A stretch of DNA of 64,000 nucleotides, from positions 83,413 to 147,412 of the forward strand of contig JBAYJO010000002.1 in assembly GCA_041665085.1 (NCBI GenBank), written 5' to 3'. Below the pieces are notes generated by a model. That model was not told where the DNA came from, did not search any database, and was given only the letters and a program-made list of their open reading frames with translations. Each line of letters starts with the position of its first letter. Positions within the stretch are counted from its first letter, which is position 1. The DNA is from Patescibacteria group bacterium. Its GTDB lineage: Bacteria; Patescibacteriota; UBA1384; JBAYJO01. Shown here in pieces: positions 3,907 to 52,496 of the stretch. The position numbers and the translations under genes are program-made.

Positions 3907-4250
3907 TTGCTGTCATCGCGAAGCGTCCGCGCTGTGGCGATCTACATCCTGTCATCGCGAGGTCATCCGCGGCGATCTATGAAAAGATTGCGGAGCCTGT
4001 CCCGAAGTATTGAGGGATCTCGACTTCTCGTAATGACAAAGTAGAATACATTCGCAATGACAGATGGATCTGACTCCTCGAACGACAGTATTTTATCATT
4101 CCAGACTCGATCCAATATATTCCACCTTGTCATTCCAGACTGAAAGCGAAGCGCTTCAGATCTGGAATCCAGTACTATTTGATTATTATTTACTCTGGAT
4201 CCCAGCCTGCGCTGGGATGACAAAATGAAAAAGCTGGAATGACGGAGAAA
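3907..4250. repeat. Composite array of GC-rich hairpin repeats (GTCATYCCAG..CTGGRATGAC family and the 'tcatcgcgaggtcatccgcggcgatcta' subfamily)
   Basis: Multiple hairpins: 3912-3945, 3951-3980, 4128-4173 (ATTCCAGA..TCTGGAAT with a nested stem) and 4193-4221 (ATCCCAGC-ctgc-GCTGGGAT). The same units recur at 5611, 37217, 41237, 47614, 51217, 57198, 59836 and 62841. Confidence 0.7.
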
Positions 4251-4621: not shown

Positions 4622-4644
4622 AATATTATTTGATAGAAATGTTA

Positions 4645-4678
4645 AAGGGCAGCTCGCAAGCGAGCCGCCCTTTGGTAT
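4645..4678. terminator. Bidirectional rho-independent terminator between convergent genes
   Basis: GC stem aagggcagctcg-caag-cgagccgccctt followed by TTT on the plus strand. On the minus strand the same hairpin is followed by T-rich sequence. Confidence 0.5.
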
Positions 4679-4688
4679 GTCATGCCAC

Positions 4689-6482
4689 CTATTCAGCGAC
4701 ATCTTTGATGGGGATAAAGATCATCCCCGCCGCCACATCTGTGGCGGTGCCCGACCAGTAAGCGTACTTACCGATCGGGTAGTTCTGCCCGCCAATCTCG
4801 GGGCTTACCCCATATTGACTGGCGACAGTTGCGTTCTGGTTGAATGCAACCACCTTAACCCGACCGATCAAGCGGCCTAAACTGCCACTCTCAAGGGACG
4901 AGTCTCTATTTGAGTAGACAGCCAGAACCTGCCCGATCTGGGCATTTCGTACTCCACGAAGGAGGACGAAACTGTCGGTTTTGGCCGCTACCGGCACCTG
5001 TTTGGGCAGTCTGCTGTAGGCCTTCTTCAGGCCATCGGCAGCACTGGCCGCCCAGAATCGCCAAGCCTTATCTGTGGTGACCTGTTCGAAGTCACCGCCA
5101 GTGCCAATCGACACCTCGACACCGGGGATGCGCACATTGGTCTCCGATCCGGAGACAACCTCTTCACTGTACCCAGTAGCGCTTACTGGCTCAACCGCCA
5201 GTTCGCGATAACTGGTTGCGGAAACTGTACCCGTCACGCGGGCATAGAATTTCCGCACTCTGCGCGAGCCAGCGGTTTCGATCCTCTCAATACCACCAGC
5301 TATGCCGGATTCGGAATAGCCATCAACACACGATGCATTGACGGTTATTTCGCCGGTGGCGCCGAAGTACTTATCGTATTCCGGACGAGTGGCAGGATCA
5401 ACACCTTCGAGCTCTTGCTCGGCTCTGGCACGATCATATCGCTCATCGCGAGCAACGATCGTTATGCCCGAGCCTTTGAGCCCGTCATTGATCCAACCAG
5501 CCAGCTCGGCTGCTCCGCCGGTGAACTCTCTTCCTTCCATCTGATTGATGACAAGCACCAACCTGACTTCGGGAATTGCGGGTTTCTGTAGGGCAGTTGC
5601 AGAATTGCTCTGGATCCCAGCCTGCGCTGGGATGACAGAAGGGTCGATTGAGACTGTCGGAGGTGCCGGAAGATTAATCTCCGGCGGATTCTCCGTCAGC
5701 CTTTTGTCAAGATGGCCAATCCGATCCACGAAACGTGGGTGATCGGCGGCGATTTCTCCAAGCTTAGAAATCTCGCCCTCGCTCTCACTCAACAGTTTTA
5801 ACGAGCGTGCCATCGCCTTCGGATCACGGCCAGTGACAGCAAGAGATTCAAGACCGAATTGATCGGCCTGAAGCTCCTGCGTTCGGCTATACTTTGCACT
5901 TCTTACCATACTAAGCACGCCGGCCGCAACCTGAATAGTCTGGTTGGCCTCGGTTCCTCCGAGGATAGTGGACAGAAGAACATTGGAAGCCAATGCATCT
6001 GACCACGCTTTCTTAGAGTCGCCGTTTTGGATGTGGCCACATTCGTGGCCAACAACACCGGCAACATCATCCTGCCACCCAAGCGGGTCTTTCGACTTAA
6101 AGAACTCAATCAACCCTTCGGTCACAAAGATGTGTCCGCCTTGCGTGCCTGGCACGCAAAAAGCGTTCAGCACAGCCTTGCTGGCCTCGTCCCTCTGGTC
6201 TACAACCAGAATTTTGGGAACATCGGCCATTTTCTTTGCTTGAGCAATCGACGAAACGACCGCGTCTAGCATCGGATCGGAATTGGTGCGGTATTCACTC
6301 CGCACCTTAAGTGCCATGTCATCGCCGGCTAGGGCGACATTCTTGGCAGTAGGGCGATTTACGATCGCAGTCAGAGCCCCATTTAGGATGGCTCTTTTCC
6401 ACGAGTCGCTGTCTGCGTTTGCCACAGAAGCAAAAACAGACATCACAACTACCAGAGCTACTAGCGAAACAAAGCGTTTCAT
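4689..6482 (-). CDS. Secreted M48-family zinc metallopeptidase (HExxH = HECGH) fused to a C-terminal CsgG/LpoB-like domain; GC-rich foreign gene
   Basis: Signal peptide MKRFVSLVALVVVMSVFASVANA. VVGHECGHIQNGD is an M48 signature. The C-terminal half (LVLVINQMEGREFTGGAAELAGWINDGL...IVARDERYDRARAEQELEG) resembles CsgG-like lipoprotein domains. GC is about 57% against about 33% in surrounding DNA. A strong SD (aggagagg) lies upstream. Hairpin repeat 5611-5637 sits in-frame at the domain junction. Confidence 0.6.
   Translation of the reverse strand: MKRFVSLVALVVVMSVFASVANADSDSWKRAILNGALTAIVNRPTAKNVALAGDDMALKVRSEYRTNSDPMLDAVVSSIAQAKKMADVPKILVVDQRDEASKAVLNAFCVPGTQGGHIFVTEGLIEFFKSKDPLGWQDDVAGVVGHECGHIQNGDSKKAWSDALASNVLLSTILGGTEANQTIQVAAGVLSMVRSAKYSRTQELQADQFGLESLAVTGRDPKAMARSLKLLSESEGEISKLGEIAADHPRFVDRIGHLDKRLTENPPEINLPAPPTVSIDPSVIPAQAGIQSNSATALQKPAIPEVRLVLVINQMEGREFTGGAAELAGWINDGLKGSGITIVARDERYDRARAEQELEGVDPATRPEYDKYFGATGEITVNASCVDGYSESGIAGGIERIETAGSRRVRKFYARVTGTVSATSYRELAVEPVSATGYSEEVVSGSETNVRIPGVEVSIGTGGDFEQVTTDKAWRFWAASAADGLKKAYSRLPKQVPVAAKTDSFVLLRGVRNAQIGQVLAVYSNRDSSLESGSLGRLIGRVKVVAFNQNATVASQYGVSPEIGGQNYPIGKYAYWSGTATDVAAGMIFIPIKDVAE
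5611..5637. repeat. Hairpin repeat copy (ATCCCAGC-ctgc-GCTGGGAT) embedded in-frame within the CDS
   Basis: Identical to the units at 4193-4221 and 37217-37245. It encodes VIPAQAGIQ in the linker between the M48 and CsgG-like domains. Confidence 0.7.
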
Positions 6483-6631
6483 GATGTCCTCTCCTTTGAT
6501 ATTGAAATGTTAAGCCGCTAAGTTCGCGGCTTTCCGCTTTACTTATTACCCGTTACTATAGCATAAAAAGCCGCTTTTGTCAAGTTTGGTTAGGTAAAAA
6601 AAGTAGAATAACTAAAATATAGTAAAGGACT

Positions 6632-9688: not shown

Positions 9689-9717
9689 ATTATAGCCCTT
9701 CGATAAACTCTCTTCAA
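9689..9717 (-). promoter_or_regulatory. Sigma70-like promoter for pilB (TTGAAG-N17-TATAAT on the minus strand)
   Basis: On the minus strand: TTGAAGagagtttatcgaagggcTATAAT, about 65 nt upstream of the pilB ATG. Confidence 0.45.
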
Positions 9718-9827
9718 GTCGAGCCTGAGGGCTCTTCCTTCAGAGTCGTTGACAGGGCATTCGACTTCTAGCTTCATGGTCGGAGACCATGAGCGCTCCG
9801 TCCACTTTGAGTGGACAGGAAGTCGTA

Positions 9828-9916
9828 TGGCGGAGAGGGTGGGATTCGGACCCACGATCCCTTGCGGGATACCGGTTTTCGAGACCAGCGCACTAGACCA
9901 ACTATGCGACCTCTCC
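9828..9916 (-). tRNA. tRNA-Ser (anticodon CGA) with long variable arm and encoded CCA
   Basis: Reverse complement is GGAGAGGTCGCATAGTTGGTCTAGTGCGCTGGTCTCGAAAACCGGTATCCCGCAAGGGATCGTGGGTCCGAATCCCACCCTCTCCGCCA. It has a 7-bp acceptor stem, anticodon loop CTCGAAA and a 16-nt variable arm. The T-loop reads TCCGAAT, so position 55 is C. Confidence 0.75.
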
Positions 9917-11171: not shown

Positions 11172-11408
11172 TTATTTTAAAGGGTCGTTTCCACCACTTT
11201 GGAAAGGATTGCAACGACTGATTCTCTTGACTCCTAAATATGATCCCTTAATTACTCCGTATTTATTAATTGCTTGGTAAGTATATTCTGAACAGGTCGG
11301 GTGGAAACGGCATACTCCATGTTTGTAAAGATGTCTTAATGGGCCGTGATCCAACGATAAGGTGTGTTGATATAAACGAATTAGAAATAAAGCGATTTTT
11401 TTAAACAT
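11172..11408 (-). CDS. yidD: Membrane protein insertion efficiency factor YidD
   Basis: Motif [22 protein letters not shown]. Confidence 0.8.
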
Positions 11409-11751
11409 TCTTCTTTAATATTTTGGCATGAATCATTAATTCTTCCAAATCTTGGTGAATTTCTGAAAATGGTATCTCTTTTTTAAAATGCTTCAAACTG
11501 ATTACAATATTTACCTTCCCAATCATTCTATCATAAAGAGACGAGATAATACTCTTTATTCTTCTTTTGGCGAGATTTCTAACTGTCGCGCGATTTGAGA
11601 TCTTCTTGCTTACAATAATAGCAAATCGAGAGATATCATTGACATTGGGAGCAATGCGCAAAATCATAAATCTGCCTCGGTAAACTCGGCCATTTTTAAA
11701 GATATAATCAAAATCTTTTTGTTTGGAAATGCGAGTTTTTTTTGCCAACAT
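11401..11751 (-). CDS. rnpA: Ribonuclease P protein component
   Basis: Basic 116-aa protein located between rpmH and yidD, with an RnpA-like sequence. Confidence 0.8.
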
Positions 11752-11755
11752 AAAG

Positions 11756-11890
11756 TTACACCGTTAATTTATGGCGACCTTTTAACCTTCTAAGTTTAAC
11801 AACTCTACGACCGCCTTCTGAAGACATTCTGGCAAAAAAACCATGAATCTTCACTCGATGATTCTTTTTTGGCTGATAAGTTCTTTTCAT
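11756..11890 (-). CDS. rpmH: 50S ribosomal protein L34
   Basis: Not in the ORF track because it is below the size cut-off. Reverse-strand translation is [44 protein letters not shown]. Confidence 0.85.
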
Positions 11891-11989
11891 TTCAAACTTT
11901 CATTTAGTTAATACATACTATAATGTTGATACAGAATAATTATACCCCTAAAAATACCGTTTGGTCAACCCTATTGTGCATTTTCTTGC

Positions 11990-12003
11990 TTGCTGTGGAT
12001 AAC
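11990..12003. promoter_or_regulatory. DnaA box (TGTGGATAA) upstream of dnaA
   Basis: 'ctgtggataac' matches the consensus TTATCCACA on the complementary strand. Confidence 0.5.
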
Positions 12004-12056
12004 TTTGTTATATTTAACTCGGACCTGATTAATACTTAGATTAAGGTAGGAGGAAG

Positions 12057-13421
12057 ATGGATTTGGAAAAAATTTGGAATACAGCACTGGGAGAACTTGA
12101 AGTTGTCCTGTCAAAGGCAAACTATATCACTTGGTTTAAAGACACTTTTATTGTCTCAAGTGAAGACGGAAAAATAGTGATTGGAGTTCCTAATGGATTT
12201 GCCGAAGAATGGCTAAGTAAAAAATTCCACCCTCAAATTTTTGATACTTTAAAAAAAACTATTTCCGATTTGAAAGAAATAGAATATAAAATTATCCCTA
12301 ATAAAAATCAATTCGAAGCCAAAACATCTGTTAGTATTGATCGAGATGAAATTGAAAATAAACGAACAAGCGTTTCAAATACTAAATCAACTGACAATAA
12401 TCTAAATCCAAAATATGTTTTTGAAAATTTTATCGTAAGCAACACCAACCGCCTTGCTCAAGCCAGTTCAATTGCAGTGGCCAATAACCCCGGCATGGTT
12501 TACAATCCACTCTTTATTTACGGAGGGGTAGGACTAGGGAAAACCCATCTTTTGCATGGGATCGGACACGAAATATTAAGAAAGTGGCCGGAAAAGAAAG
12601 TTGTTTATCTTTCCTGTGAAAAATTTACAAATGAATTTATCCACTCGATTTCCACAGGTAAAATTAATGAGTTTAAAAAGACTTATCGAAATGTTGATGT
12701 CCTGCTTGTTGATGATATTCAATTCCTTTCTAATAAAGAAGGTTTTCAAGAAGAATTTTTTCATACATTTAATTCCCTGCACCAGACTAATCGCCAGATA
12801 GTAATGACTGCTGATAGAATGCCAAAAGCCATTCCTGCTCTTGAGGAAAGATTATCTTCAAGATTTGGTTGGGGTTTAATTGCCGATATCCAATCTCCTA
12901 ATTTTGAAACTCGAATGGCCATCCTGCAAGCTAAGTGTAAAGAAAAAGGACACATTCTTGATGAAGAAGTTTTGAAATATATTGCACAAAATGTAAACTC
13001 AAATATCAGAGAACTTGAGGGTTGTTTGAACCGATTGATTACTTCTTCTGAACTGACTAATGTGGAAATTAATCTAAAAAACGCTGAAAGTATTTTAGCG
13101 GATTTTGTAAACAGCCCTTTAAATGCCAATATTTCAATTAATAAGGTATTTAAAATTATCAGTGATTATTATGAAATAAAAATCGAAGAAATTATGAGCG
13201 AAAAGAGAAATAAAGAATTAGTCAGGCCAAGACAAGTAATTATGTATATATTAAGAAATGAATTAAACTTATCTTATCCAAAAATTGCAAAAGAGTTGAA
13301 CGGTAAAGATCACACAACCATTATGTATGGAGTTTCAAAAATTAAAAAAGAATTAGCAAGAGACGAAACTTTGAAAAAAGACTTAGTTAATATAAAAGAA
13401 AAGCTTTACTCTATTGCCTAG
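12057..13421 (+). CDS. dnaA: Chromosomal replication initiator protein DnaA
   Basis: SD aggaggaag upstream. AAA+ Walker A GGVGLGKTHL and a C-terminal DNA-binding domain. Confidence 0.9.
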   Translation: MDLEKIWNTALGELEVVLSKANYITWFKDTFIVSSEDGKIVIGVPNGFAEEWLSKKFHPQIFDTLKKTISDLKEIEYKIIPNKNQFEAKTSVSIDRDEIENKRTSVSNTKSTDNNLNPKYVFENFIVSNTNRLAQASSIAVANNPGMVYNPLFIYGGVGLGKTHLLHGIGHEILRKWPEKKVVYLSCEKFTNEFIHSISTGKINEFKKTYRNVDVLLVDDIQFLSNKEGFQEEFFHTFNSLHQTNRQIVMTADRMPKAIPALEERLSSRFGWGLIADIQSPNFETRMAILQAKCKEKGHILDEEVLKYIAQNVNSNIRELEGCLNRLITSSELTNVEINLKNAESILADFVNSPLNANISINKVFKIISDYYEIKIEEIMSEKRNKELVRPRQVIMYILRNELNLSYPKIAKELNGKDHTTIMYGVSKIKKELARDETLKKDLVNIKEKLYSIA

Positions 13422-13664
13422 TTGTGGATAAAATGTGGATAAAATAAGCTTTATAAACATCATTGACAATTAAAACATACACCGCTTAATAATTATCCCA
13501 TACTAATCCACAGAAAAAGTTGATTTATACCTGTTATTATCCCCCATTAATCCACCACCCAATGAGGTTAAATCCACAATATTCACACCCCTTATTATTA
13601 CAGTTATTATTTATATATATGTATATATTATTAAAACAAATGTGGAAAACAATTAAAGAAAAGG
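13422..13664. promoter_or_regulatory. oriC-like region: DnaA-box cluster plus AT-rich unwinding element between dnaA and dnaN
   Basis: Two perfect TGTGGATAA boxes at 13424-13447. Near-consensus boxes follow: TAATCCACA (about 13506), TTAATCCAC, TAAATCCACA and TGTGGAAAA. An AT tract tatttatatatatgtatatattattaaaa lies at 13603-13635. Confidence 0.7.
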
Positions 13665-14777
13665 ATGGTAAGAATGAATTTTTCTTGTAAGCAACAAAAT
13701 ATATCTAAAGCATTAAATATTGTATCTAGATTTTCAGGAACAAAAACAACAACACTTCCAATACTTAATAATATTTTAATATCTACTGATAAAGGAAGAT
13801 TAAAGTTTTCAGCAACAAATTTAGAAATTGGGATTAACACTTGGATAGGGGCAAAAGTTGAAGAAGAAGGATCTTATACAATTCCTTCAAAATTATTTAT
13901 TGATTTTATAAATACTAATAATGATGAAACAATTAATTTTAAATTAAAAGATGATTCATTAATTTTAAAAAGTGATAAATATAACGGTAAAATTAAAGGA
14001 ATTGTTGCATCTGAATTTCCATTAATTCCTTCGATTAAAAATAAAGAAGTTTTTTATATTTCTGCTGAAGAATTTAAAACAGCTATAATTGAAACTGCTT
14101 TTGCTTGTGCAATTGATGAAACAAGACCGATTTTAGCCGGTGTTTATATGAAAGTTGAAAAAGATATGGCAACCTTTGTTTCAACTGATAGTTATAGATT
14201 GGCTGAAAAACAGGTTAAATTAAATAAATCAATTGAAGGTGAAATTAATATTATCATCCCCTCTCGAGTGTTAAGTGAACTTGCTCGAATTATTACAAAT
14301 GAAAAAGAAATTGGAATATTATGCGATGATAACCAAATTCAATTCAATTTTGGTGAAATTGAAGTTATTTCAAGATTGATTGAAGGAAAATTTCCTGATT
14401 ATAAACAATTGATTGCAAATAATTTTTCAACAGAAGTTGTGATTAAAAATAATGATTTAAAAAATGCTATTAAAATGGCATCGTATTTTGTTAGAGATGG
14501 AGCTAATAATATCAGAGTAAAAGTTGACGCTAAAGGAATGATAATTTCATCTTATTCTGCCGAAGTTGGTGATAGTGAAAGTAAATTGAATTGTGAAGTT
14601 AAAGGCGTAGGAATAGAAATTACATTTAATGCTAAATATATTCTTGATGCTCTAAATGTAATTGGATCAGATATGATCGAGTTTAAATTTAATGATAAAT
14701 TAAACCCCGGTTTTATTTCAACATCAGAAGATAAAAATTATAAATATATAATAATGCCCTTAAGGATTGAAGAGTGA
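13665..14777 (+). CDS. dnaN: DNA polymerase III beta subunit (sliding clamp)
   Basis: Conserved position after dnaA. Three-domain beta-clamp pattern, about 370 aa. Confidence 0.85.
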   Translation: MVRMNFSCKQQNISKALNIVSRFSGTKTTTLPILNNILISTDKGRLKFSATNLEIGINTWIGAKVEEEGSYTIPSKLFIDFINTNNDETINFKLKDDSLILKSDKYNGKIKGIVASEFPLIPSIKNKEVFYISAEEFKTAIIETAFACAIDETRPILAGVYMKVEKDMATFVSTDSYRLAEKQVKLNKSIEGEINIIIPSRVLSELARIITNEKEIGILCDDNQIQFNFGEIEVISRLIEGKFPDYKQLIANNFSTEVVIKNNDLKNAIKMASYFVRDGANNIRVKVDAKGMIISSYSAEVGDSESKLNCEVKGVGIEITFNAKYILDALNVIGSDMIEFKFNDKLNPGFISTSEDKNYKYIIMPLRIEE

Positions 14778-15826
14778 TATTAAAACTAAAGTTATTTAAC
14801 TTTAGAAATTACAGGGAAGTAGAATATAAATTTGGAAAACAAACTGTTATCTGTGGTAAAAATGGAGCTGGTAAAACTAATCTTCTGGAAGCAATTGGCA
14901 TATGTTCTACTACCAAATCATTTAGAGGATCAGGTGATAATGATTTAGTTAATTGGGACGAGAATTATTATAGGCTTGAAGCAACAATTAAAAACAAAAA
15001 TAAAGGAACAGATTTTCTTGAGTTGATTTTTCAGAAAGAAGCTCAAGGACCTAAAAAAATTGCCAAGATTAATAAAGTAAAGACAGGTTTGTCTAATTTT
15101 ATTGGAAAATTAAAAGTTGTTGAATACTCTTTTGAAAGCAATGATCTGATTCTGGATGGTCCGGCCAAGAGAAGAAGATTTTTAGATAGTTCGCTTTGTC
15201 AGCTTTTTCCGGAATATACTTTAAATCTGATAAAGTTTATGCGAATAATTAAAAATAGAAATCATTTGTTATACAAAATCAGAGAACGGATGGCAGGTGT
15301 TGATGAGCTTGATTTTTGGGATGAGGGGCTTATTTCATTAGGACTTGAAATTGTTAAATATCGTAAAGAATTTATTGTTTTTATTAATAAAAATATAAAT
15401 AGTTTCTACTCTTATTTATCGGATGATGATAAAAAAATTGAATTAAAATATCATTTAAGTGGGTTTGATAGTTTAAATGATTTAAGAAGTAAAAGAGAGC
15501 AAGAAATTAGAGCGGGATTAAGTTTGTATGGACCGCATCGAGATGATTTGTTATTTTTTTCAGATCATCATAAAGTGGAAGATTCTCTTTCAAGAGGAGA
15601 GATAAAATCACTTCTTTTTGTCTTAAAAAAATGTGAGGCTGAATATATTTTTGATAAGTCGAGTGAACGGCCGGTGATACTTTTTGATGATATTTTAGCT
15701 GAGCTTGATGAGAATAGGAGAAAAAAATTGGAACAGTTTATTGAAGATAATCAGATAATTATTTCTTCAACTGAAAAGACAGAGTTAGAGGGTTTGTTTG
15801 GAAATAGTGAGTTTATTAATTTATGA
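14774..15826 (+). CDS. recF: DNA replication and repair protein RecF
   Basis: ATGA overlap with dnaN. Walker A GKNGAGKTNLLEAI and an SMC-like signature near the C-terminus. Confidence 0.85.
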   Translation: MILKLKLFNFRNYREVEYKFGKQTVICGKNGAGKTNLLEAIGICSTTKSFRGSGDNDLVNWDENYYRLEATIKNKNKGTDFLELIFQKEAQGPKKIAKINKVKTGLSNFIGKLKVVEYSFESNDLILDGPAKRRRFLDSSLCQLFPEYTLNLIKFMRIIKNRNHLLYKIRERMAGVDELDFWDEGLISLGLEIVKYRKEFIVFINKNINSFYSYLSDDDKKIELKYHLSGFDSLNDLRSKREQEIRAGLSLYGPHRDDLLFFSDHHKVEDSLSRGEIKSLLFVLKKCEAEYIFDKSSERPVILFDDILAELDENRRKKLEQFIEDNQIIISSTEKTELEGLFGNSEFINL

Positions 15827-19200: not shown

Positions 19201-22200
19201 ACTAGATCAGATGGATTTAAGCTAGATAAATTGATTGGACGATCAACACCTAGTAAATTTGACAGTTTAATTCCGCCGATTTCAGCAAGCAAGTACTTTC
19301 TTTCATCATTACTTTTTGCTGTTACTAATTTATATCCATAATCTTCCGGAAGGCCAAATTTATCTTCGATTCTTTTTCCACCGATTTTTGCAAATGGATC
19401 AAGCGAGCGGCCAATTAATATATTGTAAAGATCTTCTGTGGTCAGTTTTTGTCCCATGAAGTTTACATTGCTATCGTACAAGGAATCAGAGATTTTAAAT
19501 CCAAGTTGATATGCTCCAACTTTTTGGCAATATTCTGTAACTGTTATTTTTCCCGAAAGCATTTTTTGAGTTGTTCCATGTTCGATGGAAAGTTTGTCAT
19601 CGATTTCATTAAGGTTTGACGCATAGTCCTCCCAGAAGAGATCTTCGCTTAGTTGAATTAAATTCCACAGGAGAGGTGGCTTTCCAGCAGTAAGTTCATA
19701 AGGCATATTGAAGATTTCTGATACTCGTTTTTCAGTTTCTTGATCTGTTTCGCCGGTTGGTCTTGTTGCAACAAAAGCTGATTCAAGTTTCATCAAAAGC
19801 CCCATTGATTTATCTTGGTAGCTAGCAGTAGATACAAAACTTCCTGCCGGGAGATCCAGTTTTTCTTCGATAGCTGCTTGTCCAACAGATTGTTTTAGTG
19901 TGTCTTGGCTTTTAGTTGTTGCGGCCATGAAATATTGCAGAGAATTGGTAGGCATTTTTAAGGATTGTTCAGTTTTTCTGGCGGCAATAGTTTTGGCAAA
20001 ATTTTTAATTTCTTTTGGGTTTTTTGCTAAATATATTAAATCTTTTTTAGTGATAAGAGTTGTCGAATTATCCGGGGTTGATTGTGTACTCGGGTCAGAA
20101 TCAATAGCGTCATAGTTTTCTTCAATCTCTTCTCCTTTAACTATTTCTTTGATGTCTTTATTGATTACTTTTACATCTTCTTTTGTTTGATTTTTTATAC
20201 TTTCATTTTCCGGTTTATCAAGTTCTGCCTGAAATTTTTGCCAATTTTCTGTGATTCTTCCAACAGTTGGGCTAACTTGATTTATTGCCATATGTTTTGA
20301 AAGCAGATCAAATTCTTGTCTGATGTTTTTTACATAATCTTTCAAAACTGTTTTAGAGGAGTCGATTGAATTTATGTTTTTTTCTATATTTTCAGTACGC
20401 GACCGGATATCATTAACTCTTGTAGTATAGAAATTAATATCATTGTTAATTTTTATAAGTTTTTGAACCGAAGAACTGTCATTTAATTTTGTTTGTAATT
20501 TTTGACCAACTGTACTGTTCTTCAGTCCTTCGAATAAATAATGTTGACCTTCTTGTTTGAAGACATCGGATGTATTTCCAAATAAAAATATTTTATTTAT
20601 ATCTCCTGATTCTACGGTATAAAATTTCGATGTAAATTCATTTTCGTCTATGCTTGTCTTCTTGAATGCTTCGCTTAGTTTAAAATCAGGATTTGTTTTG
20701 ATATCAAATTGAGGTAGATGAAATGGATCATTGCTATACATAGATATTGATTCTATCGGTTCAATTTTGTTTATAAATACAAGATCTTTAGTCATTGTAT
20801 CTTTATATTGAAGGAGCCAGTGATAAAGTATTTCCCTTTGATCATCAGCGGTTGAAAGTACTTTAGATATTTCGTAAGCACCAATTGTTTCTAATTTTGA
20901 TCTATCTCCAGCTAAAAGCGGATCTATGCTTCCTTCAGGAATATCCAATGCTTCATCTCTTTTATTTCCTTGCGGCACTCCGCCTTCTTCTGTTGTGGCA
21001 GAATCACTAGGGTTTTTCGTACCAGCTGCAACATTCCAAGGATAATTTTTATATTGTTCAATTGTGCTTGCTTTTAACTCGTTTGTTATTTGTTCTTTAA
21101 GCCAAGCTACATTATGGTTGTTCAAAAAATTTGCTGTTGTATCTGTTTTGACTCCAAATCTTTCATCAGCAAGATATGGATTTGCTCTGATCCAATCTGC
21201 TCTTTCTTTTCCCATTGCAGTCATAAATTTATCAAAATCATTTGTTGCAAGGCTGTTTTCTTCAAGATATAGATTACCTTCAAGCAGTCTTTGTGCAATT
21301 CTTTCATTTAAACTAGCTGCCGATGTAATTTTGTCATAATCAAAAGTTCTAATTGGAAGATTTAATTCTTTTTCAATTTTTCGGGCACCTGCATTTCTTA
21401 AAATTTCAAGATTATTTTTTCCACTCAAACTTCCTGTTGGAAGTCCGAGCGATTGTTCGATGTAATACTGACCAATTGATGTTTCAAGTTCGTTAGTGTC
21501 ATTTCCCTGGATTGTTTGTCTTGGAACGCCAAGTTGATCGGCAATAATGGCGCGTCCGAGATTATCCATTATGTCGTCAAAATTTGTTCCTTGCCAACTA
21601 TGAGATGGGCTTTGAATGACTTGTTCAAATATTCCCCGTCCGATAAAGGTGGCGACATTAGATAGATTAATGGTGCTACTAAATTCATCTGAAGAATATT
21701 CATCTTGACTAATTCCAAGCTGATCAAGCAATTCTAAAAAGCTTACATTTGTAAGAGAATTTGCAAGCGCGTTGATTGATATTCCCAATGTTTCTTCGGA
21801 GCTGCCAAATTTGCCGCCTTGCCAGGAAATTTTGATTGCGCTTGGATTCATAGCTGTTGTTTCTGTTTTGGTAGTTCCAACCCAGTTTTTTTTAACTACT
21901 TTTACAGAACATCTCAAGTAGTCTACTGTTGCGACGTCAACTGCTTGGGAAAAACCCGAATCAGGATAAGCGTGCGAAAGAATTGAAGGTTCGGTCGATT
22001 TATTTACATCACTGTCTGATGCTACAATTTGTGATATTTGTATAAGCTCATGTCCGGCACCTCCCCTGTCTTTTGGTGTGACAAGATAAATTATAAAAGC
22101 CTTGACTCTTCGATCAACTTTATTTTGACGAATTGCTTCTAAGTCTTTTTGAGTAATAATCAATTTTTGCGTTTTATTGGCATAGTTCCAATAGGAATCA

Positions 22201-24981: not shown

Positions 24982-25137
24982 TTTGTCCCCTCCTCACCAT
25001 TAATCTTCTTCTTGATTATATATTTTAATAACTCTTTTGTAAAAGTGTGGAAATCATTTTTAGTTTGTTGATACGTCTCTTGATTTTTTAACCAAATCGG
25101 TATAAAATATAGCCATCTGATTTCTGGAGGAGATAGG

Positions 25138-25914
25138 ATGAAAACAGTTACTCTGGTATTGTTGGTTTGTTTGTCATTGGTGTCGGTGGCTCATGCGGAC
25201 AAAGTCTTGATGAAAGCCGATCTGAACAAGGACGGCAAACAGGAGAGTGTCATCAAGACAGATTACTCATATGGAAGTGGCGGGAGCTTCTATTTCATTT
25301 ATGTCAAAGCAGGATCTAAGGATCTGTTTTACCAAGGGTTCTGCTTGGGCAACGGCGATTTCCTTGTCCGCGATGTCAATCCTCGTTATCCGGGCAAGGA
25401 GATTGTGGTGTGGTATAAGTCTGATGAGAAGCCCTACCGCTTCGAAATCACTTGGTGGGGTTGGGATAAGACAATTGGGCACTACTCAATGTATAGTGCG
25501 GTGCTTTCGAAGAAGACTACTTGGCAAGCGGCGCTGAAGGAGTATGAAGGAAAAGAAGAGAAGATCCCGTTTTGCCAGATGATTGCTCGAGCTAGAATCT
25601 TGCTCTCATCGTTGAAGAATAAGGATATTTCGGCTGTTGATCGTGCGCTGGGTCCTGGTATGGAAGGAACTTACGAGAAGTATAACGATCAGATGTGGCC
25701 GGAACCGGGCTCGACTGCCTTTCAAAACCAGTTTTTCTGTAAGTTGATAGATTGGCCTCAAGGTAAAGGCAACGACTGGTTTTGTAGTGTTGTTTTCGAG
25801 GGGATAGAACCTAGAAAAGGATGGGATAGCGGCTATTCTATACAGATAAACTACATATCCGAGTCCCACCATCAATATCCTCGCGACTGGGAACCTTGGA
25901 CACCGGGAGGATAA
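25138..25914 (+). CDS. Secreted hypothetical protein, GC-rich (about 47%) foreign-composition gene on the opposite strand within the operon
   Basis: Signal peptide MKTVTLVLLVCLSLVSVAHA. Own promoter-like TTGATT-N17-TATAAA and SD ggaggag. No recognisable domains. Confidence 0.55.
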   Translation: MKTVTLVLLVCLSLVSVAHADKVLMKADLNKDGKQESVIKTDYSYGSGGSFYFIYVKAGSKDLFYQGFCLGNGDFLVRDVNPRYPGKEIVVWYKSDEKPYRFEITWWGWDKTIGHYSMYSAVLSKKTTWQAALKEYEGKEEKIPFCQMIARARILLSSLKNKDISAVDRALGPGMEGTYEKYNDQMWPEPGSTAFQNQFFCKLIDWPQGKGNDWFCSVVFEGIEPRKGWDSGYSIQINYISESHHQYPRDWEPWTPGG

Positions 25915-25956
25915 TAGAAAACTGGTGTACGGGCGAATAGTTCATGCACATACACT

Positions 25957-25979
25957 TCGGGCCCCGCTTCGCGGGGCCC
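25957..25979. other. GC-rich perfect hairpin (cgggccccgc-ttc-gcggggcccg) downstream of the GC-rich gene
   Basis: 10-bp perfect stem with no U-tract on either strand. Confidence 0.4.
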
Positions 25980-25995
25980 GAACTATTATATATAT

Positions 25996-27042
25996 TTAAT
26001 TGAATTTATAAAGATAATTATTTGAAAGAAAATAAATCAAATTATTGCTGTCCAGCAGGATAGTGGTTGGATCTAAATTTTCTCCTATAAATTGTTTTTG
26101 TTCAATTGTGTTGGTCTTGGTGTCGGCGATAAATATATTATCCTCTGAAGTGACCTTATTATTTAAGCTATAATAAAGTTTATCGCTAATTAGATTAAAT
26201 TTATCTAGATTTTGGTTGTTTGTAATATTGTTGATTTTAAAGATTGATCCGTCGGTTGTATTGATTATTTCAAAAATATTATTATCTTCTTTTTTATACT
26301 GAATCAATATTTTTTGTTCTGACGGGTATATTTTTTCAGTTATAAAAACATTTTCATAAAGAATATCCTTTTTTTTACTTTTCAGGTTTAATCTTACAAA
26401 GTCAACTAACATATCTTCTTTGACGTTTTCACAATAAATATCTTGAGTATCGGGGTTGTAATATTTGAATTCATCACAATTTTCCGGGTCGCTGATTTTT
26501 TGAAAGTTAGTTCCGTCCCAATCAGATTGGTTAATAGATACTTTACTAACATCTAAATATTCATAAATTAATTTATCGTCTGACCAGTAAGGATCGAAAA
26601 TATTTTCATTTAATTTACTAAGCTTTTCCTGTTCTAAATTGTAAGTATAAAAAATTTCAAGATTATTTATCTGATCAGTAGTGTTCATTAAAATGAGTTT
26701 TTTGTCATTTGACCAACTAACATAATTAATATAAGGAACATCTATAGGATAATTCTTAATGGTTGTTTTGTCTTTTAAAGAATATTTAATAATTGCTTGT
26801 TCCTTTCCAGCGATATATAATAGTTCCGAATTTTCATTTATAGTGGGAAAAAATATAGTATCATTTAAAATTTGTTTAGCATTTGTAGTTTTTGTTGAAT
26901 TAGTATTATTGTTATTTTTGTTTTTATTTAGAAGTAAAAACATAATTAAAAGTCCAAAAAATAAGATTATGATTGTGATAATTAATATTATTTTTTTTCG
27001 ATTATTTAACATGTTTTCCTTTCTATTAAGGGCAGACAGCAC
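25996..27042 (-). CDS. N-terminally anchored beta-propeller-like protein (hypothetical)
   Basis: TM helix, an Asn/Thr-rich linker, and a repetitive beta-rich region. Overlaps the upstream gene by 17 nt. Confidence 0.45.
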   Translation of the reverse strand: MLSALNRKENMLNNRKKIILIITIIILFFGLLIMFLLLNKNKNNNNTNSTKTTNAKQILNDTIFFPTINENSELLYIAGKEQAIIKYSLKDKTTIKNYPIDVPYINYVSWSNDKKLILMNTTDQINNLEIFYTYNLEQEKLSKLNENIFDPYWSDDKLIYEYLDVSKVSINQSDWDGTNFQKISDPENCDEFKYYNPDTQDIYCENVKEDMLVDFVRLNLKSKKKDILYENVFITEKIYPSEQKILIQYKKEDNNIFEIINTTDGSIFKINNITNNQNLDKFNLISDKLYYSLNNKVTSEDNIFIADTKTNTIEQKQFIGENLDPTTILLDSNNLIYFLSNNYLYKFN

Positions 27043-37216: not shown

Positions 37217-37266
37217 CTCTGGATCCCAGCCTGCGCTGGGATGACAAAAGAAGTTGGGATGACAAC
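37217..37266. repeat. Hairpin repeat copy (ATCCCAGC-ctgc-GCTGGGAT plus partial second unit) between the two paralogous secreted-protein genes
   Basis: ctctggatcccagcctgcgctgggatgac is identical to 4193-4221 and 5609-5637. Confidence 0.7.
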
Positions 37267-39930: not shown

Positions 39931-40020
39931 AAGGGGCTAGGGGCTTCGAGTCTTGAAGCGCGCCCCTTTGCCCCTTACAAACCCCCACCCCCGCACGCCT
40001 GCCTGCCGGCGAGGCAGGCT
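39931..40020. repeat. GC-rich hairpin repeat cluster (AAGGGGC..GCCCCTT; GCCTGCC-tgccggcga-GGCAGGC)
   Basis: The core 'cctgcctgccggcgaggcaggc' is related to 'cctgcctggcggcaaggcaggc' at 41243 and 59852. Confidence 0.6.
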
Positions 40021-40048
40021 TTTCAAGGAGCGTCAATAATAATTTACT

Positions 40049-41236: not shown

Positions 41237-41363
41237 CGTCATCCCAGACCTGCCTGGCGGCAAGGCAGGCTTGATCTGGGATCCATCTATCTAAATTTGT
41301 ATTATAAACTCTGGATTCCAGCTTTCCGCCTAGGCTCGGCGAGACTGGTCGCTGGAATGACAA
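41237..41363. repeat. Composite hairpin repeat (GTCATCCCAGAC..GATCTGGGAT and CTGGATTCCAGC..GCTGGAATGACA)
   Basis: The first unit is identical to 59836-59880. The loop of the second unit (tttccgcctaggctcggcgagactggtcgct) occurs reverse-complemented at 51251-51290. Confidence 0.75.
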
Positions 41364-44858: not shown

Positions 44859-47596
44859 AGAAAAATAAACTATTAATTATTGACGGCAATGCCCTGCTTC
44901 ATCGCACTTTCCATGCTATACCGCCAATGATTACTCGAAGTGGTGAACATACCAATGCGGTTTATGGTTTTATAACTATATTTTTTAAGGCATTGTCAGA
45001 AATAAAGCCTGATCTTTGCGTAATTTGTTGGGATGAGGGAAAGAAAACTTTTAGACACAAAGAATATAAAGAATATAAAGCCACGCGAGTTAAACAAGCT
45101 GATGAACTCTATTCGCAGCTTAGTAGAACTCGCGAAATTATGGATTTAATGGATATTCCAAATTATTCCTCTCCTGATTTTGAAGCTGATGATCTTATTG
45201 CAACATTAACCGAGCAAGCTAAATTGAAAAATATTGAAACCATAATTTTAACCGGAGATTTGGATTCTCTGCAGCTGGTTGAAGATGATAAGGTTAAAAT
45301 TTACACAATGCGAAAAGGTATTTCAGATATTGTAATTTACAATGAGGCAGCGGTTAAGGAAAGATATGGTGGACTTGGACCGGAAAAGATGATTGAGTAT
45401 AAAGCTATGAGGGGCGATCCGTCTGATAATATTAAAGGACTTGCGGGAATTGGCGAAAAAACTGCTATTACTCTTTTGGCTGAATATGGCGATATTGAAA
45501 ATATTTATGAAAATCTTGATAAATTAGCTCCAAAAACCAGAGAAATATTTGCTCAAAATAAAGAAACCTTAGAGGAAAATAAATATCTTGTAACAATGGT
45601 TAAAGATGCACCGGTAACATTTGACGAAAAAAAATCTGAACTTCGTAAATTTGATCGAGAAAAAGTGGCAAAATTGTTTCAAGAACTTGAGTTTAAAACT
45701 TTGCTTTCTCGCCTGCCCTATTTTGAAACTAAAAATGCTGATCAAATCGGACTTTTTTCTGAAAAAAAAGAAAGCAGTGAGAATAAAGTTATTAATAAAA
45801 ATTATGAGTTAGTTGCAAATATTGATGATTTAGTTACAAAATTAGAAGCGCAAGATCTTATTTGTTTTGATACGGAAACCAATGATCTCTATGGTGAGCT
45901 TGTTGGGATATCCTTTGCTTTTAAAGAAGATTCAGCATTTTATGTCCCAACTCTTGAGCATAAACAGGAAATTTTAGATAAATTGAGACCGATTTTCAGC
46001 AGCAGCAAAATCAAAAAAGTGGGCCATAATTTGAAGTATGATTATAAGGTAATGAAGCAAGAAGGAGTTGAGGTTGAGTCTCTCTATTTTGATTCAATGA
46101 TTGCGTCTTATGTTTTGCATCCGCATTATAATTCTCATTCAATGGATAACCTTGCTTTTACTGAACTGGGATATGAAACTATGCCTCTTTCTGCTCTTTT
46201 TGATATGGGTGATGGCAAAAAGGCAAAAATTGGAGATATGAGAAAAGTTGATTTGGACTTAATTTCTCAATATTCTTGTGAGGACGCTGATATTACTTTA
46301 AGGTTGGTTAATAGATTTAATAAAGAATTAGATGAGCATCCAAAGCTAAAGAAGTTGTTTTTTGAGGTTGAAATGCCTCTTGTTAAAATACTTTCTGATA
46401 TTGAGCTTCAAGGAATTAAAATTGATGTTGATTTACTAAAGAAAATGAGCAAAGAAATGCACTTCGAGCTTGGAAAAATCGAATTGGATATTTATGATAT
46501 AGCCGGTCGAAAGTTCAATATTAATTCAACCCAGCAGCTTAAAGATGTGCTTTTTAATACTTTGTGTATCAATTCCAACCAGATGAAAAAAACAAAAACC
46601 GGTATTTCAACAGCTGCATCTGAACTTGAGAAATTACGAGGTCAGCATCCAATTATTGAGCAGATTTTTCGTTATCGCGAACTTTCAAAATTAACCAATA
46701 CTTATATTGATGCTTTACCGGAACTGGTTGATAAAAACGACAGAGTTCATACAAGTTTTAATCAGACTCTGACATCAACCGGAAGGTTTTCATCAAGCGA
46801 ACCAAATCTGCAAAATATTCCGATTAGAACTGATGAGGGAAAGAAAATTAGGTCGGCTTTTATTGCCGATAATGGTTATAAATTGATTTCTGCTGATTAT
46901 TCTCAAATTGAACTTCGGGTTGCTGCTGCCATGTCAGGAGATAAAGAAATGATTAAAGCGTTCAAATCAGGTAAAGATTTTCATGCCATTACAGCTTCAG
47001 AAGTACTGGATGTGCCCCTTGAAATGGTTGATCAAGAGATGCGTCGTAGGGCAAAAGCAATAAATTTTGGTATGATTTACGGTCAGTCCCCGCATGGATT
47101 ATCTGAAGCAACAGAGATGACGCATGAAGAAGCAAGAGATTATATTGATAAATATTTTGTTCATTTTCATGAACTTAAGAAATTTTTAGATAATTGCGTT
47201 GAAGAGGCGCATAAGAAGGGTTATACAGAAACTTTTTTAGGTAGAAGACGATATGTGCCGGAGATAAATTCAAGTATTTTTCCTATCAGAAGTGCAGCTG
47301 AAAGAGTGGCGCTTAATACTCCGCTTCAGGGAACAGCGGCTGATATTATTAAGATCGCAATGGTTAAATCTTATGACTTTATTTCAAATAATTCGGATTT
47401 TAAGGATGTGAAGTTATTGCTTACGGTTCATGATGAACTTGTTTTTGAATGTCCTGAATCTCGAGTAAAAAATTTTGTTCCTGAAATTAAGAGAATTATG
47501 GAAAATGCACTTGATCTGGGTGTTTCACTTGATGCAGAGGTGAAGGTTGGGCGTGATTGGGGGACGTTAGAGTCCATAAAGTTAGAAAGTTTATAA
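44855..47596 (+). CDS. polA: DNA polymerase I
   Basis: ATGA overlap with murE. 5'-3' exonuclease N-terminus, 3'-5' exonuclease domain, and polymerase motifs (DYSQIELR, TVHDELVFE). Confidence 0.9.
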   Translation: MKKNKLLIIDGNALLHRTFHAIPPMITRSGEHTNAVYGFITIFFKALSEIKPDLCVICWDEGKKTFRHKEYKEYKATRVKQADELYSQLSRTREIMDLMDIPNYSSPDFEADDLIATLTEQAKLKNIETIILTGDLDSLQLVEDDKVKIYTMRKGISDIVIYNEAAVKERYGGLGPEKMIEYKAMRGDPSDNIKGLAGIGEKTAITLLAEYGDIENIYENLDKLAPKTREIFAQNKETLEENKYLVTMVKDAPVTFDEKKSELRKFDREKVAKLFQELEFKTLLSRLPYFETKNADQIGLFSEKKESSENKVINKNYELVANIDDLVTKLEAQDLICFDTETNDLYGELVGISFAFKEDSAFYVPTLEHKQEILDKLRPIFSSSKIKKVGHNLKYDYKVMKQEGVEVESLYFDSMIASYVLHPHYNSHSMDNLAFTELGYETMPLSALFDMGDGKKAKIGDMRKVDLDLISQYSCEDADITLRLVNRFNKELDEHPKLKKLFFEVEMPLVKILSDIELQGIKIDVDLLKKMSKEMHFELGKIELDIYDIAGRKFNINSTQQLKDVLFNTLCINSNQMKKTKTGISTAASELEKLRGQHPIIEQIFRYRELSKLTNTYIDALPELVDKNDRVHTSFNQTLTSTGRFSSSEPNLQNIPIRTDEGKKIRSAFIADNGYKLISADYSQIELRVAAAMSGDKEMIKAFKSGKDFHAITASEVLDVPLEMVDQEMRRRAKAINFGMIYGQSPHGLSEATEMTHEEARDYIDKYFVHFHELKKFLDNCVEEAHKKGYTETFLGRRRYVPEINSSIFPIRSAAERVALNTPLQGTAADIIKIAMVKSYDFISNNSDFKDVKLLLTVHDELVFECPESRVKNFVPEIKRIMENALDLGVSLDAEVKVGRDWGTLESIKLESL

Positions 47597-47662
47597 AGTT
47601 TGTAAAGTTGATGACCAGATTTGTCATTCCAGACAGGAAGTGGAACGCTCCTGATCTGGAAT
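47574..47662. repeat. 9-mer 'ATAAAGT' periodic repeat array followed by a GTCATTCCAGAC..CTGGAATC hairpin
   Basis: ccATAAAGTtaGAAAGTttATAAAGTttGTAAAGTtgatgacc starts inside the last codons of polA. It is followed by the hairpin ATTCCAG-N22-CTGGAAT. Confidence 0.65.
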
Positions 47663-47740
47663 CTATATTATAATTTTATAATTTTTTTTATTTTCTGAAA
47701 AAGGTCAAAATAAATAATGTTTTAAATATGGAAAGGGCGG

Positions 47741-47773
47741 GAAGATTAGATCTTCCCGCCCTTTGTCGTGCGG
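47741..47773. terminator. Bidirectional terminator hairpin (aagggcgggaag-attagat-cttcccgccctt)
   Basis: Perfect 12-bp GC-rich stem followed by TTT. Lies between the convergent polA and PEP-CTERM genes. Confidence 0.55.
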
Positions 47774-47776
47774 TTG

Positions 47777-48343
47777 TTACCGCTTGCGACGCCACGTGGC
47801 GCCTGCGAGTCCGATGAAGCCGGTTAGGAGTGTTACGATGTTCCCCGGCTCCGGAACAGGATTGGCGAAGATGTCGAGGGTATATGGCTTGTCTGATGGA
47901 ATACTGATGCTCCCTGCTTTCGTCAGATCAAGCCATATAGTCGTTGATCCTTGATCTATCTCGCCATAAACACTGAATTGCGGCCATAGGTCGCCTTCTT
48001 GGTAGAAGTAGACTGGTTGCCAATTGTATGTCTTCCAAGACAGGATGAACTGTGACGGAGCGCTTGGAATTGGCGTGATTGACATTGTCTCTGTGAATGG
48101 CGCCGTCGATCCGTAATGGATCTGTGCGCCGAATCCACCTTCGAGTGAAGCGTTCACGCTTCCCGTGATAGGAAGTATGTGAAATCCGTAGGCGTAGTCG
48201 TTACCACCAACGGTAACTTTGCCGGATGAACAGTTGATCGTGAAATCGACTGCCCAGCCCTTGTAGGAAGGTTCGCCAGCGAAAGCCGGCATGGAAATGA
48301 GACTGATGAGAAGAACGACGAGAACTGTGAATCTGGTTTTCAA
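47777..48343 (-). CDS. Secreted PEP-CTERM-anchored protein, GC-rich (about 52%) foreign-composition gene
   Basis: Signal peptide MKTRFTVLVVLLISLISMPAFA. The C-terminus VPEPGNIVTLLTGFIGLAGATWRRKR is a PEP motif, a TM helix and an Arg/Lys cluster, the canonical PEP-CTERM/exosortase sorting signal. Confidence 0.6.
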   Translation of the reverse strand: MKTRFTVLVVLLISLISMPAFAGEPSYKGWAVDFTINCSSGKVTVGGNDYAYGFHILPITGSVNASLEGGFGAQIHYGSTAPFTETMSITPIPSAPSQFILSWKTYNWQPVYFYQEGDLWPQFSVYGEIDQGSTTIWLDLTKAGSISIPSDKPYTLDIFANPVPEPGNIVTLLTGFIGLAGATWRRKR

Positions 48344-48528
48344 TGTATCCTCCTTGAGCCTCGGGCTTTAAGCCCCGCAGGCGCGCTCCCAAACTTCAGA
48401 GCTAAACTGCCGGCAATTAGAGCTTTCACTCTTAGAGTTCGTTGTCGGCAAATTAGCTCCTTGTTTAAGTAACGGTTTAATATACCATATCTTTATGCTT
48501 TTGTCAAGACAGTGTAAGATAAAATAGT

Positions 48529-48610
48529 CCATAAAGTTTGTAAAGCGCCTCGTTGGCGCTCGCCGTAGAGGCGAGTTCATAAAGTGGAAAGTTTTTAGTT
48601 TAAGTTATGG
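48529..48610. repeat. 'ATAAAGT' 9-mer repeats flanking two small GC hairpins
   Basis: ccATAAAGTttGTAAAG-gcgcctcgttggcgc-tcgccgtagaggcgag-ttcATAAAGTggAAAGTtttTAGTTTAAGTTATGG. The ends are roughly inverted (ccataa...ttatgg). Confidence 0.5.
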
Positions 48611-51216: not shown

Positions 51217-51344
51217 TTTGTCATTCCAGACTCCTATTTCGTCATCCTAGCGACCAGTCTCGCCGAGCCTAGGCGGAAAGCTGGGATCCAGAGAGTTTGT
51301 TTGTTTTTTATACTTCTAGATTCCAGCCTGCGCTGGAATGACAC
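51217..51344. repeat. Composite hairpin repeat (reverse-orientation copy of the 41237-41363 element, plus ATTCCAGC-ctgc-GCTGGAAT)
   Basis: tttgtcattccagac..., then agcgaccagtctcgccgagcctaggcggaaagct (reverse complement of 41321-41354), then ttccagcctgcgctggaatgacacc. Confidence 0.75.
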
Positions 51345-52286: not shown

Positions 52287-52496
52287 TTTAGCTCCTACAT
52301 AGATTAAAAATGTTTTTGATGTTTTAAATATACCAGATAAAATGTTTTTGGTCAATATTAGCAAGACTCGATGGCTATGTTGGGTTAAGATATGAAAAAA
52401 TGGAGCACACTATTGACTTTTTAACCGAATCGTACTAATATTGTTTAGATGTTGTAAGATATACAGTTCTGAACTCTGGACAGGAGGATTTCAGTT

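Follow-up and report, generated by a model that had tools for sequence, protein, structure and literature searches.

Four genes in a 64,000-nucleotide chromosomal stretch of a Patescibacteria bacterium (positions 83,413 to 147,412 of contig JBAYJO010000002.1, assembly GCA_041665085.1; the whole stretch is hereafter called the window) stand apart from all others in base composition and codon usage. They are gene A (4689-6482, minus strand), gene B (25138-25914, plus strand), gene C (47777-48343, minus strand) and gene D (52497-52949, plus strand), and they lie as single GC-rich islands among AT-rich neighbors. Because their composition sets them apart as a separate class, a foreign origin is the simplest cause. 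We therefore hold, with moderate confidence, that the four genes were acquired horizontally in separate single-gene transfers.

The GC content of the entire window is 0.359, and that of the four genes is 0.545 (A), 0.465 (B), 0.511 (C) and 0.517 (D). The initial annotation of this stretch had described four GC-rich genes in an AT-rich genome, and the GC content at third codon positions (GC3) bears this out: it is 0.567, 0.533, 0.561 and 0.556 for A to D, compared with 0.256±0.041 (sd) and a maximum of 0.325 for the 44 remaining genes of the window, which places the islands at z = 6.8-7.7. High GC3 spans the full length of the open reading frame (ORF) in each case, and likelihood-based segmentation delimits maximal GC-rich segments at 4647-6537, 25179-25980, 47735-48449 and 52563-53043. 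A leave-one-out comparison of synonymous codons yields log-likelihood ratios of +0.15 to +0.24 per codon for the islands, against a mean of -0.26 and a maximum of -0.135 for the native genes. That is, every island fits the codon usage of the other three islands better than native usage, and for every native gene the opposite holds. The codon usage of the window's genes is bimodal, in two classes without overlap, with the four genes as the outliers.

The shift is not confined to one kind of codon, in that both G- and C-ending codons are more frequent in the islands (AAG, GAG, CAG, CTG, CCG, GGC). For A and D, the GC content at first (GC1) and second (GC2) codon positions and the amino-acid composition are shifted as well. 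There are also differences within the class: A and C favor C over G at the third position, while B and D favor G, and the dinucleotide distance between A and C is the smallest of all pairs. By dinucleotide signature (δ*), A alone lies above the native range; B, C and D are too short to be judged by this measure.

Sharp compositional boundaries such as these would also be expected of chimeric joins with DNA from a GC-richer organism, introduced during assembly or binning. Comparison with independent assemblies (SRR6484324, JGI 3300037810, SRR18595301 and ENA ERZ27249449), however, recovers identical junctions of all four islands with both flanks at 99.97-100% identity, in three or four samples and assemblers. 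Each island, moreover, is one gene sitting exactly in the intergenic spacer between native genes, and gene A carries a native repeat within it. Because the same junctions recur in assemblies from other samples, we conclude that the islands are not chimeras. This concern, already raised in the initial annotation, is excluded as far as sequence comparison of assemblies allows, and we give an artefact next to no probability. At 99.97-100% identity the other samples represent the same population, and therefore provide no divergence clock. Structured RNA genes were also considered as the cause of the GC peaks and rejected: Rfam (gathering threshold, E≤1) reports only tRNA-Ser in the window, and gene A matches Pfam M48. 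The island ORFs show a coding-type pattern, with GC1 > GC2.

By its sequence features, each island appears to be transcribed as a complete unit of one gene, comprising a σ70-like promoter, a Shine-Dalgarno site, an ORF and a strong stem-loop terminator. The putative promoter of A (6555-6583, minus strand) consists of TTGACA, a 17-nt spacer and a TG-extended TATAGT, and matches 11/12 consensus positions. That of B (25080-25108, plus strand) has TTGATT, a 17-nt spacer and TAAAAT, and that of D (52413-52441, plus strand) has TTGACT, a 17-nt spacer and TAATAT; the spacer motif TTTTTAACCAAATCG is common to both. For C, promoter and leader occupy 48344-48508 on the minus strand, with TTGACA at 48507-48502 and TATATT at 48484-48479. 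The promoters of A and C share CTTGACAAAAGC. Those of B and D share 18/20 positions over the -35 box and spacer (TTGAYTTTTTAACCRAATCG; 25080-25099 and 52413-52432), a match among the five best of 1081 upstream-region pairs; the remaining four stem from repeat elements, from low-complexity runs or from this B-D match as read from the divergent neighbors. The shared motif could be the site of a common regulator, or could reflect common ancestry of the two upstream regions. A similar stretch also precedes the ribosome-binding site of both genes, and both lie in intergenic regions that are divergent with native genes. Gene C has a 5′ leader of about 135 nt (48344-48480, minus strand), which is GC-rich, folds at -49.5 kcal/mol (z = -3.7) and has no match in Rfam; it could be a cis-regulatory RNA.

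At the other end, all four genes finish in a perfect 12-15 bp GC-rich stem-loop (-26 to -37 kcal/mol, z from -4.2 to -7.3). These hairpins lie at 4644-4673 for A (minus strand; AAAGGGCGGCUCGC…GCGAGCUGCCCUUU, -27 kcal/mol, z = -4.6), at 25956-25982 for B (plus strand; perfect 12-bp GC stem, -36.6 kcal/mol and z = -5.5 for an 84-nt stretch), at 47732-47764 for C (minus strand; perfect 15-bp stem, -26 kcal/mol, z = -7.3) and at 53008-53042 for D (plus strand), where a U-rich tract follows. The T tract after the stem is clear in D and weaker in A, B and C, and the stems of A and C are alike (AAAGGGCGG…CCCUUU). From position and fold, we read these hairpins at the gene ends as predicted intrinsic terminators. 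The initial annotation had treated them together with a repeat family that is a different thing; the same type of hairpin stands behind a homologue of B with normal GC content in the nearest genome (L004).

Evidence for an insertion comes from gene C. In two relatives (L024 and L049) polA and holA are directly adjacent, with a 2-bp gap, whereas in the window gene C lies between them. Because polA and holA adjoin in these relatives, C has an empty site, and its position is best explained as an insertion between the two genes, a reading supported by this comparison of gene order. In two further relatives (L013 and L017), polA and holA are separated by other, unrelated genes, among them GC-rich outliers (GC3 0.72 and 0.62, compared with about 0.35-0.40). 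The polA-holA junction is thus variable, and it is possibly an insertion hotspot. The short direct repeats flanking C were considered as a target duplication and rejected, since they are part of a 9-bp AAAGTnnnT array that recurs at 57.1 and 57.35 kb; this membership indicates that a native spacer was probably split by the insertion. Periodic arrays of this kind occupy the spacers at 47577-47610, 48516-48600, 57133-57170 and 57330-57370, that is, after polA, before holA, after pnp and before the gene for uracil-DNA glycosylase, with the C island splitting one of them. The pattern has 6 matches against 0.28 expected, and the arrays may be protein-binding sites.

Gene C encodes 188 residues from a TTG start behind AAGGAGG. 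Its product has a signal peptide, recognized by eye (…PAFA/GEP), and a C-terminal VPEP motif followed by a hydrophobic helix and RRKR (VPEPGNIVTLLTGFIGLAGATWRRKR). These are the features of PEP-CTERM/exosortase substrates such as Zoogloea PepA (NF033554, TIGR02595, PF07589), and the NCBI annotation likewise names C a PEP-CTERM protein. The profile scores fall just under the cut-offs of the curated families, at 14.5 bits against 20.7 for Pfam PF07589 and 15 against 16 for TIGR02595; the best NCBIfam match is the flocculation protein floc_PepA (E = 0.0016). A scan of JGI contigs returned a single relative (L098), with 27% identity and the same FANPVPEP tail, on a contig of uniformly 51% GC where it adjoins a gene of σ54-activator type. 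Nothing was found for C by tblastn against plasmids, in scans of viral contigs or in a search of PDB sequences. Judged by these motifs, C looks like an envelope protein of two-membrane (diderm) bacteria. The phylum to which the window belongs is generally regarded as lacking an outer membrane.

Gene B presents a different situation. It encodes a secreted protein of 258 residues, with a signal peptide by eye (…VAHA/DK) and the motifs DLNxDGxxE, YPGKEIVVW and WWGWD, and lies within a native operon resembling a type IV secretion system (T4SS) locus (16218-39857, 23.6 kb, minus strand, normal GC). Its products include a VirB4/TraG-type ATPase, proteins like PrgI and TraC and a cell-wall hydrolase, together with giant proteins 2107 and 990 residues long. 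Within 16218-39857, B is the sole genuine plus-strand gene, as the initial annotation had recognized. It is not a new interruption of the operon, however, as family members occupy the same position and strand in the T4SS-like loci of five other genomes (L004, L092, L095, L099 and L100), so that the plus-strand interruption is ancestral.

A word-indexed protein search with B found only B itself. An exhaustive HMMER search gave 10 matches besides itself, namely 9 credible remote relatives and one false positive, a repeat protein, and a search with a profile of the family found 3 proteins. Common to the family members are the motifs D(I/L)NxDGxKE, YPGKEIVVW and WYGWD, as well as a signal peptide. 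On most contigs examined, the B-family gene lies on the opposite strand amid minus-strand genes; some of its neighbors are homologous to genes of the T4SS-like locus in the window, and others are wall hydrolases (SLT, CHAP, NlpC/P60, M23). The nearest genome, L004, shows perfect synteny with the window over 20 kb, with flanking proteins 44-87% identical. There, the counterpart of B has ordinary composition (GC 0.358, GC3 0.335) and is 36% identical to B, in the N-terminal half only. Real close pairs elsewhere in the family are 45-47% identical. In the star-shaped family tree, just 1/300 bootstraps join B and its syntenic counterpart as sisters. Because B is not sister to the syntenic copy, a replacement is favored: the slot is best read as now filled by a remote and GC-richer relative from the same Patescibacteria-restricted family, that is, as a xenologous replacement. 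As in other cases of xenologous gene displacement, position, strand and family would be kept, while the composition is foreign and a sister relation to the nearest genome's copy is lacking. The case differs from a typical one in the very small size of the family, about 10 members, and in its star-like tree, so that very fast divergence in place is possible.

A structure model of B from the 10-sequence alignment has an N-terminal β domain with predicted local distance difference test (pLDDT) values of 80-93. Its fold matches in the PDB, to CarG, to the lysozyme inhibitor PliI and to integrin FG-GAP blades, are weak and not significant (E ≥ 0.018 throughout). Because of the wall-hydrolase neighbors, a reasonable guess is that B is a small secreted β-domain protein serving as an inhibitor or chaperone of a T4SS wall hydrolase. 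Two side observations concern the same locus. L004 has its own GC-rich single gene, at 19786-20388 (minus strand; 200 residues, GC 0.506, GC3 0.453, N-terminal membrane helix), which has no Pfam match and lies at a different place within the T4SS-like locus than B. In addition, the AT-rich gene just downstream of B shows an indel polymorphism between samples, with about 8 nt at window positions 26374-26383 against about 29 nt at 5557-5587 of a JGI contig (L002).

The longest of the four, gene A, encodes 597 residues: a signal peptide (by eye, …VANA/DSD), an M48 metalloprotease domain with the zinc motif HExxH (HECGH), and an uncharacterized C-terminal half of about 300 residues. The initial annotation had reported signal-peptide proteins for three of the four genes, and these are A, B and C; D has none. 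The match of A to Pfam PF01435 (M48) is clear (1.2e-22; 81 bits against a gathering cut-off of 20.3). Its nearest relatives in NCBIfam and the PDB are LoiP, BepA and 3c37, rather than the membrane protein HtpX, although its scores of 36 and 47 bits lie far below the corresponding BepA/LoiP equivalog cut-offs of NCBIfam, 570 and 365 bits. By sequence, A looks like a secreted, soluble M48 protease of the BepA/LoiP type, and as such resembles envelope proteins of diderm bacteria. It shares the signal peptide and the M48 domain with these periplasmic enzymes, but differs from BepA and LoiP in having no TPR match and carrying instead the unmatched C-terminal half, with a native repeat inserted at the junction. 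This insert is a 50-bp stretch (5590-5639, minus strand) that contains one copy of a hairpin repeat (core 5614-5636) and is read in frame as SVIPAQAGIQSN. A native repeat inside gene A implies that A has been resident long enough to be colonized by a native element.

The gene is also present in SRR6484324. In a variant from JGI 3300037810 (contig L096, around position 2970), the 50 bp are absent between xCCCT direct repeats, and gene A is frameshifted and split into ORFs of 315 and 283 residues. This variant could be a deletion allele, or else the insertion in the window could have fused two ORFs. In part of the population, gene A is dispensable or decaying.

Gene D remains an orphan. It encodes 150 residues without a signal peptide and of no recognizable family, with no match in Pfam, NCBIfam, PHROG, PADLOC, the PDB, or the plasmid and viral collections. 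It is likewise found in SRR6484324 and in JGI contigs. A single-sequence structure model reached a pLDDT of 39.5 and is unusable.

The composition, the anatomy of the genes, the recurrence in independent assemblies, the synteny, the empty site at C and the family relations of B are direct observations; the direction of transfer, the donors, the transfer mechanism and the functions of the proteins are inferred. Each gene would have been gained alone, as a self-contained unit of promoter, Shine-Dalgarno site, ORF and terminator. Donors of more than one kind are probable: a diderm type for A and C, a xenologue from within the family for B, and no assignable source for the orphan D. The likeness of A and C in promoter, terminator, third base and dinucleotides, together with the preference of B and D for G, suggests two sources but does not prove them. 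The DNA would probably have entered by way of type IV pili and competence, or else by a conjugation-like transfer, followed by illegitimate or homology-assisted recombination; the native hairpin repeat would later have invaded gene A in frame.

The initial annotation had proposed repeated acquisition from a high-GC donor, possibly a host or partner organism. A foreign origin is indeed the best explanation, helped by the empty site at C, but no single donor can be named, and no host or partner was identifiable for any island. In the searches for taxonomic affinity (full searches of large protein databases for A and B, limited collections for C and D), A gave only distant M48 matches with 25-39% coverage and 28-33% identity and nothing in viral contigs, B only T4SS loci of the Patescibacteria type, C the one 27% match, and D none. 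The best matches of B are within its own lineage, an outcome that had been proposed to speak against acquisition.

Transfer of this kind is already documented for the phylum, and the window is a further instance of it. A 2025 paper in mSystems (PMC12455944) described genes transferred one at a time, and small islands, in Patescibacteria; most of the exchange takes place within the phylum, and some donors belong to diderm phyla. Many of these genes are of unknown function, and uptake is thought to occur via pili and competence. The window shares with those cases single genes of foreign signature in a streamlined Candidate Phyla Radiation (CPR) genome. It differs in being denser (4/48 genes in 64 kb), in that no donor is recoverable, and in including one like-for-like replacement in a T4SS locus. 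Among the closest relatives by polA (L013, L017, L024, L049 and L070), single GC-rich outliers of unrelated function are also seen, namely GATase-like, MoxR, HD and DHDPS genes and some of no known kind.

Several observations weigh against horizontal acquisition. No homologue of A to D above about 35-40% identity was found, although the databases, with billions of proteins, include the source metagenomes of this organism, and the ORF and Pfam tables and repeat scans revealed no integrase, transposase, tRNA target or flanking target-site duplication at the islands. The island promoters are AT-rich and native-looking, and B and D share their spacer motif. B-like genes are the GC3-richest of their locus in 6/7 genomes, usually by a small margin, which hints at a bias intrinsic to the family rather than at one transfer. 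Finally, L024 and L049, which are different species with flanking proteins 82-93% identical, carry an orthologous GC-rich GATase-like gene right after polA-holA (12480-13988 and 14276-15784, respectively; proteins 89.6% identical). Its four-fold divergence of 0.40 equals that of its flanks (0.32-0.56), and its GC3 is nonetheless 0.71 and 0.73, compared with 0.37-0.46 around it. It follows that islands like these can be old and that their composition may be maintained rather than a mere residue. A rough F81 calculation for this gene implies that, under simple decay toward the genomic value, the ancestor would need a GC3 of about 0.9; that is, one must assume either very GC-rich donors or a composition that is being held.

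The B-like genes, the L024/L049 pair and the lack of a donor for any island are all points in favor of a class of mostly secreted resident genes whose GC-rich composition is actively maintained, by codon or mRNA selection or by a local GC-biased process; such genes may be old and vertically inherited. The coincidence of the GC-rich tract boundaries with transcription units fits this explanation as well. Against it, GC1, GC2 and amino-acid composition are shifted as well in A and D, the pilins and other native genes for which high expression is expected keep to native codons, C has an empty site in relatives, and B does not group with its syntenic counterpart. Nor is any bacterial process known to lift the GC3 of one gene by 0.3. 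We consider maintenance unlikely, while giving it appreciable weight. A related proposal is that the genes keep a partner-like dialect since they act or are expressed in a GC-richer two-membrane host, either after T-DNA-like delivery of DNA via the T4SS-like machine or as proteins that join the exosortase/floc matrix of the host. B lies inside the T4SS-like operon, the PEP-CTERM tail of C would normally need an exosortase and an outer membrane for its processing, A is of the periplasmic BepA/LoiP type, and the promoters are near the σ70 consensus with strong Shine-Dalgarno sites. Yet this proposal is entirely speculative: neither transfer signals nor border repeats nor a relaxase are in evidence beside the genes, and the B homologue in the nearest relative has native composition, so that we regard it as highly improbable. 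Both elements can be combined, in that the GC-rich genes, instead of being fading remnants of transfer, would be a maintained second codon class of host-interface genes, repeatedly exchanged with, acting on or even expressed in GC-richer diderm partners whose dialect they would keep, through the pilus, competence or T4SS-like machinery, with polA-holA as a recurrent landing site; we think this improbable too, if not to the same degree.

A further explanation takes up the suggestion in the initial annotation that a hairpin repeat family may have mobilized the genes: this GC-rich family would have moved them as cassettes, in the manner of miniature inverted-repeat transposable elements (MITEs), repetitive extragenic palindromic (REP) sequences or integrons. 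Such a family does exist. It consists of palindromes of the form GTCATYCYAG-[4-34 nt GC-rich loop]-CTRGRAT(CCAGAG), mostly intergenic and often paired in opposite orientation, and a repeat scan found 11 copies in the window (4129-4168, 4199-4243, 5614-5636, 37223-37245, 41238-41282, 41315-41361, 47623-47662, 51241-51287, 51320-51342, 59837-59881 and 59901-59923), with none expected by chance. Two copies are about 450-560 bp from gene A, one is within it, and one (47623-47662, plus strand) lies between the polA stop codon and the gene C terminator. On the other hand, 7/11 copies are far from the islands (37.2, 41.2-41.4, 51.2-51.3 and 59.8-59.9 kb), none adjoins B or D, no island is bracketed by a pair of copies, and a native pilin gene separates gene A from its two nearby copies. 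The terminator-like hairpins at the gene ends have no sequence relation to the family, and the window encodes no integrase or transposase. Thus, of the claim that the islands are flanked by hairpins or family repeats, the part that stands is the hairpin after each gene, i.e., its terminator; a family repeat is found directly beside C only. We conclude that the family is an independent native palindromic element, separate from the terminators, and that mobilization by it is very unlikely.

Rickettsia palindromic elements (RPEs) and REP-like sequences are short, scattered intergenic palindromes. The family in the window is alike in being short and intergenic with conserved ends, and in having one in-frame copy, in gene A; it differs from RPEs in sequence and phylum, and did not give rise to the GC islands. 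Small GC-rich palindromes of a second family are likewise intergenic (3909-3985 and 57200-57230; TGTCATCGCGAGG…GCGATCTAT).

If horizontal acquisition is correct, this one chromosome stretch offers four clean examples of single-gene gain. Two of the gained proteins would be typical of two-membrane bacteria (the PEP-CTERM-tailed C and the periplasmic-type M48 protease A), and a third would be a swapped-in variant of a conserved secreted protein of the T4SS-like locus. Attachment to other microbes is the way of life of CPR bacteria, and the route by which they gain host-contact proteins is an open question. Should a partner be identified, e.g., an organism of about 50-55% GC that carries PEP-CTERM proteins and occurs in the same samples, the four genes could serve as markers for host assignment. 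The comparison of L024 and L049 raises the testable question of whether foreign composition decays at all in these genomes. The leads of most interest are therefore the diderm-type envelope proteins in a CPR bacterium, the replaced gene of the T4SS locus, the variable polA-holA junction and the decay of composition.

The native setting of the islands is that of a cellular chromosome. Housekeeping genes in the window include those for a class-I aminoacyl-tRNA synthetase, DNA polymerase I, PNPase, RNase J, FtsK and DnaA, the last with an rpmH-rnpA-yidC cluster. A type IV pilus ATPase is encoded as well, along with a run of T4SS-type pilin genes. A phage origin of the window was considered and rejected, as a megablast of 24 kb gave no match and cellular housekeeping genes are present. 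The nearest species representatives by polA are just 47-50% identical and include metagenome-assembled genomes labeled Buchananbacteria and Falkowbacteria. The sole tRNA of the window, tRNA-Ser (9828-9916), adjoins no island. Additional short GC-rich intergenic segments (GC 0.56-0.68), built of hairpins, lie at 39933-40034, 699-776 and 9695-9827; one of them is directly downstream of tRNA-Ser, and none has a match to an RNA family. The rpmH-rnpA-yidD-yidC-jag genes (minus strand) are divergent from dnaA at 12057-13421, in the region 11400-13500, and the cumulative GC skew has its minimum near 10 kb. This gene cluster and the skew minimum point to a replication origin, which would place the T4SS-like operon head-on to replication and make gene B co-directional with it.

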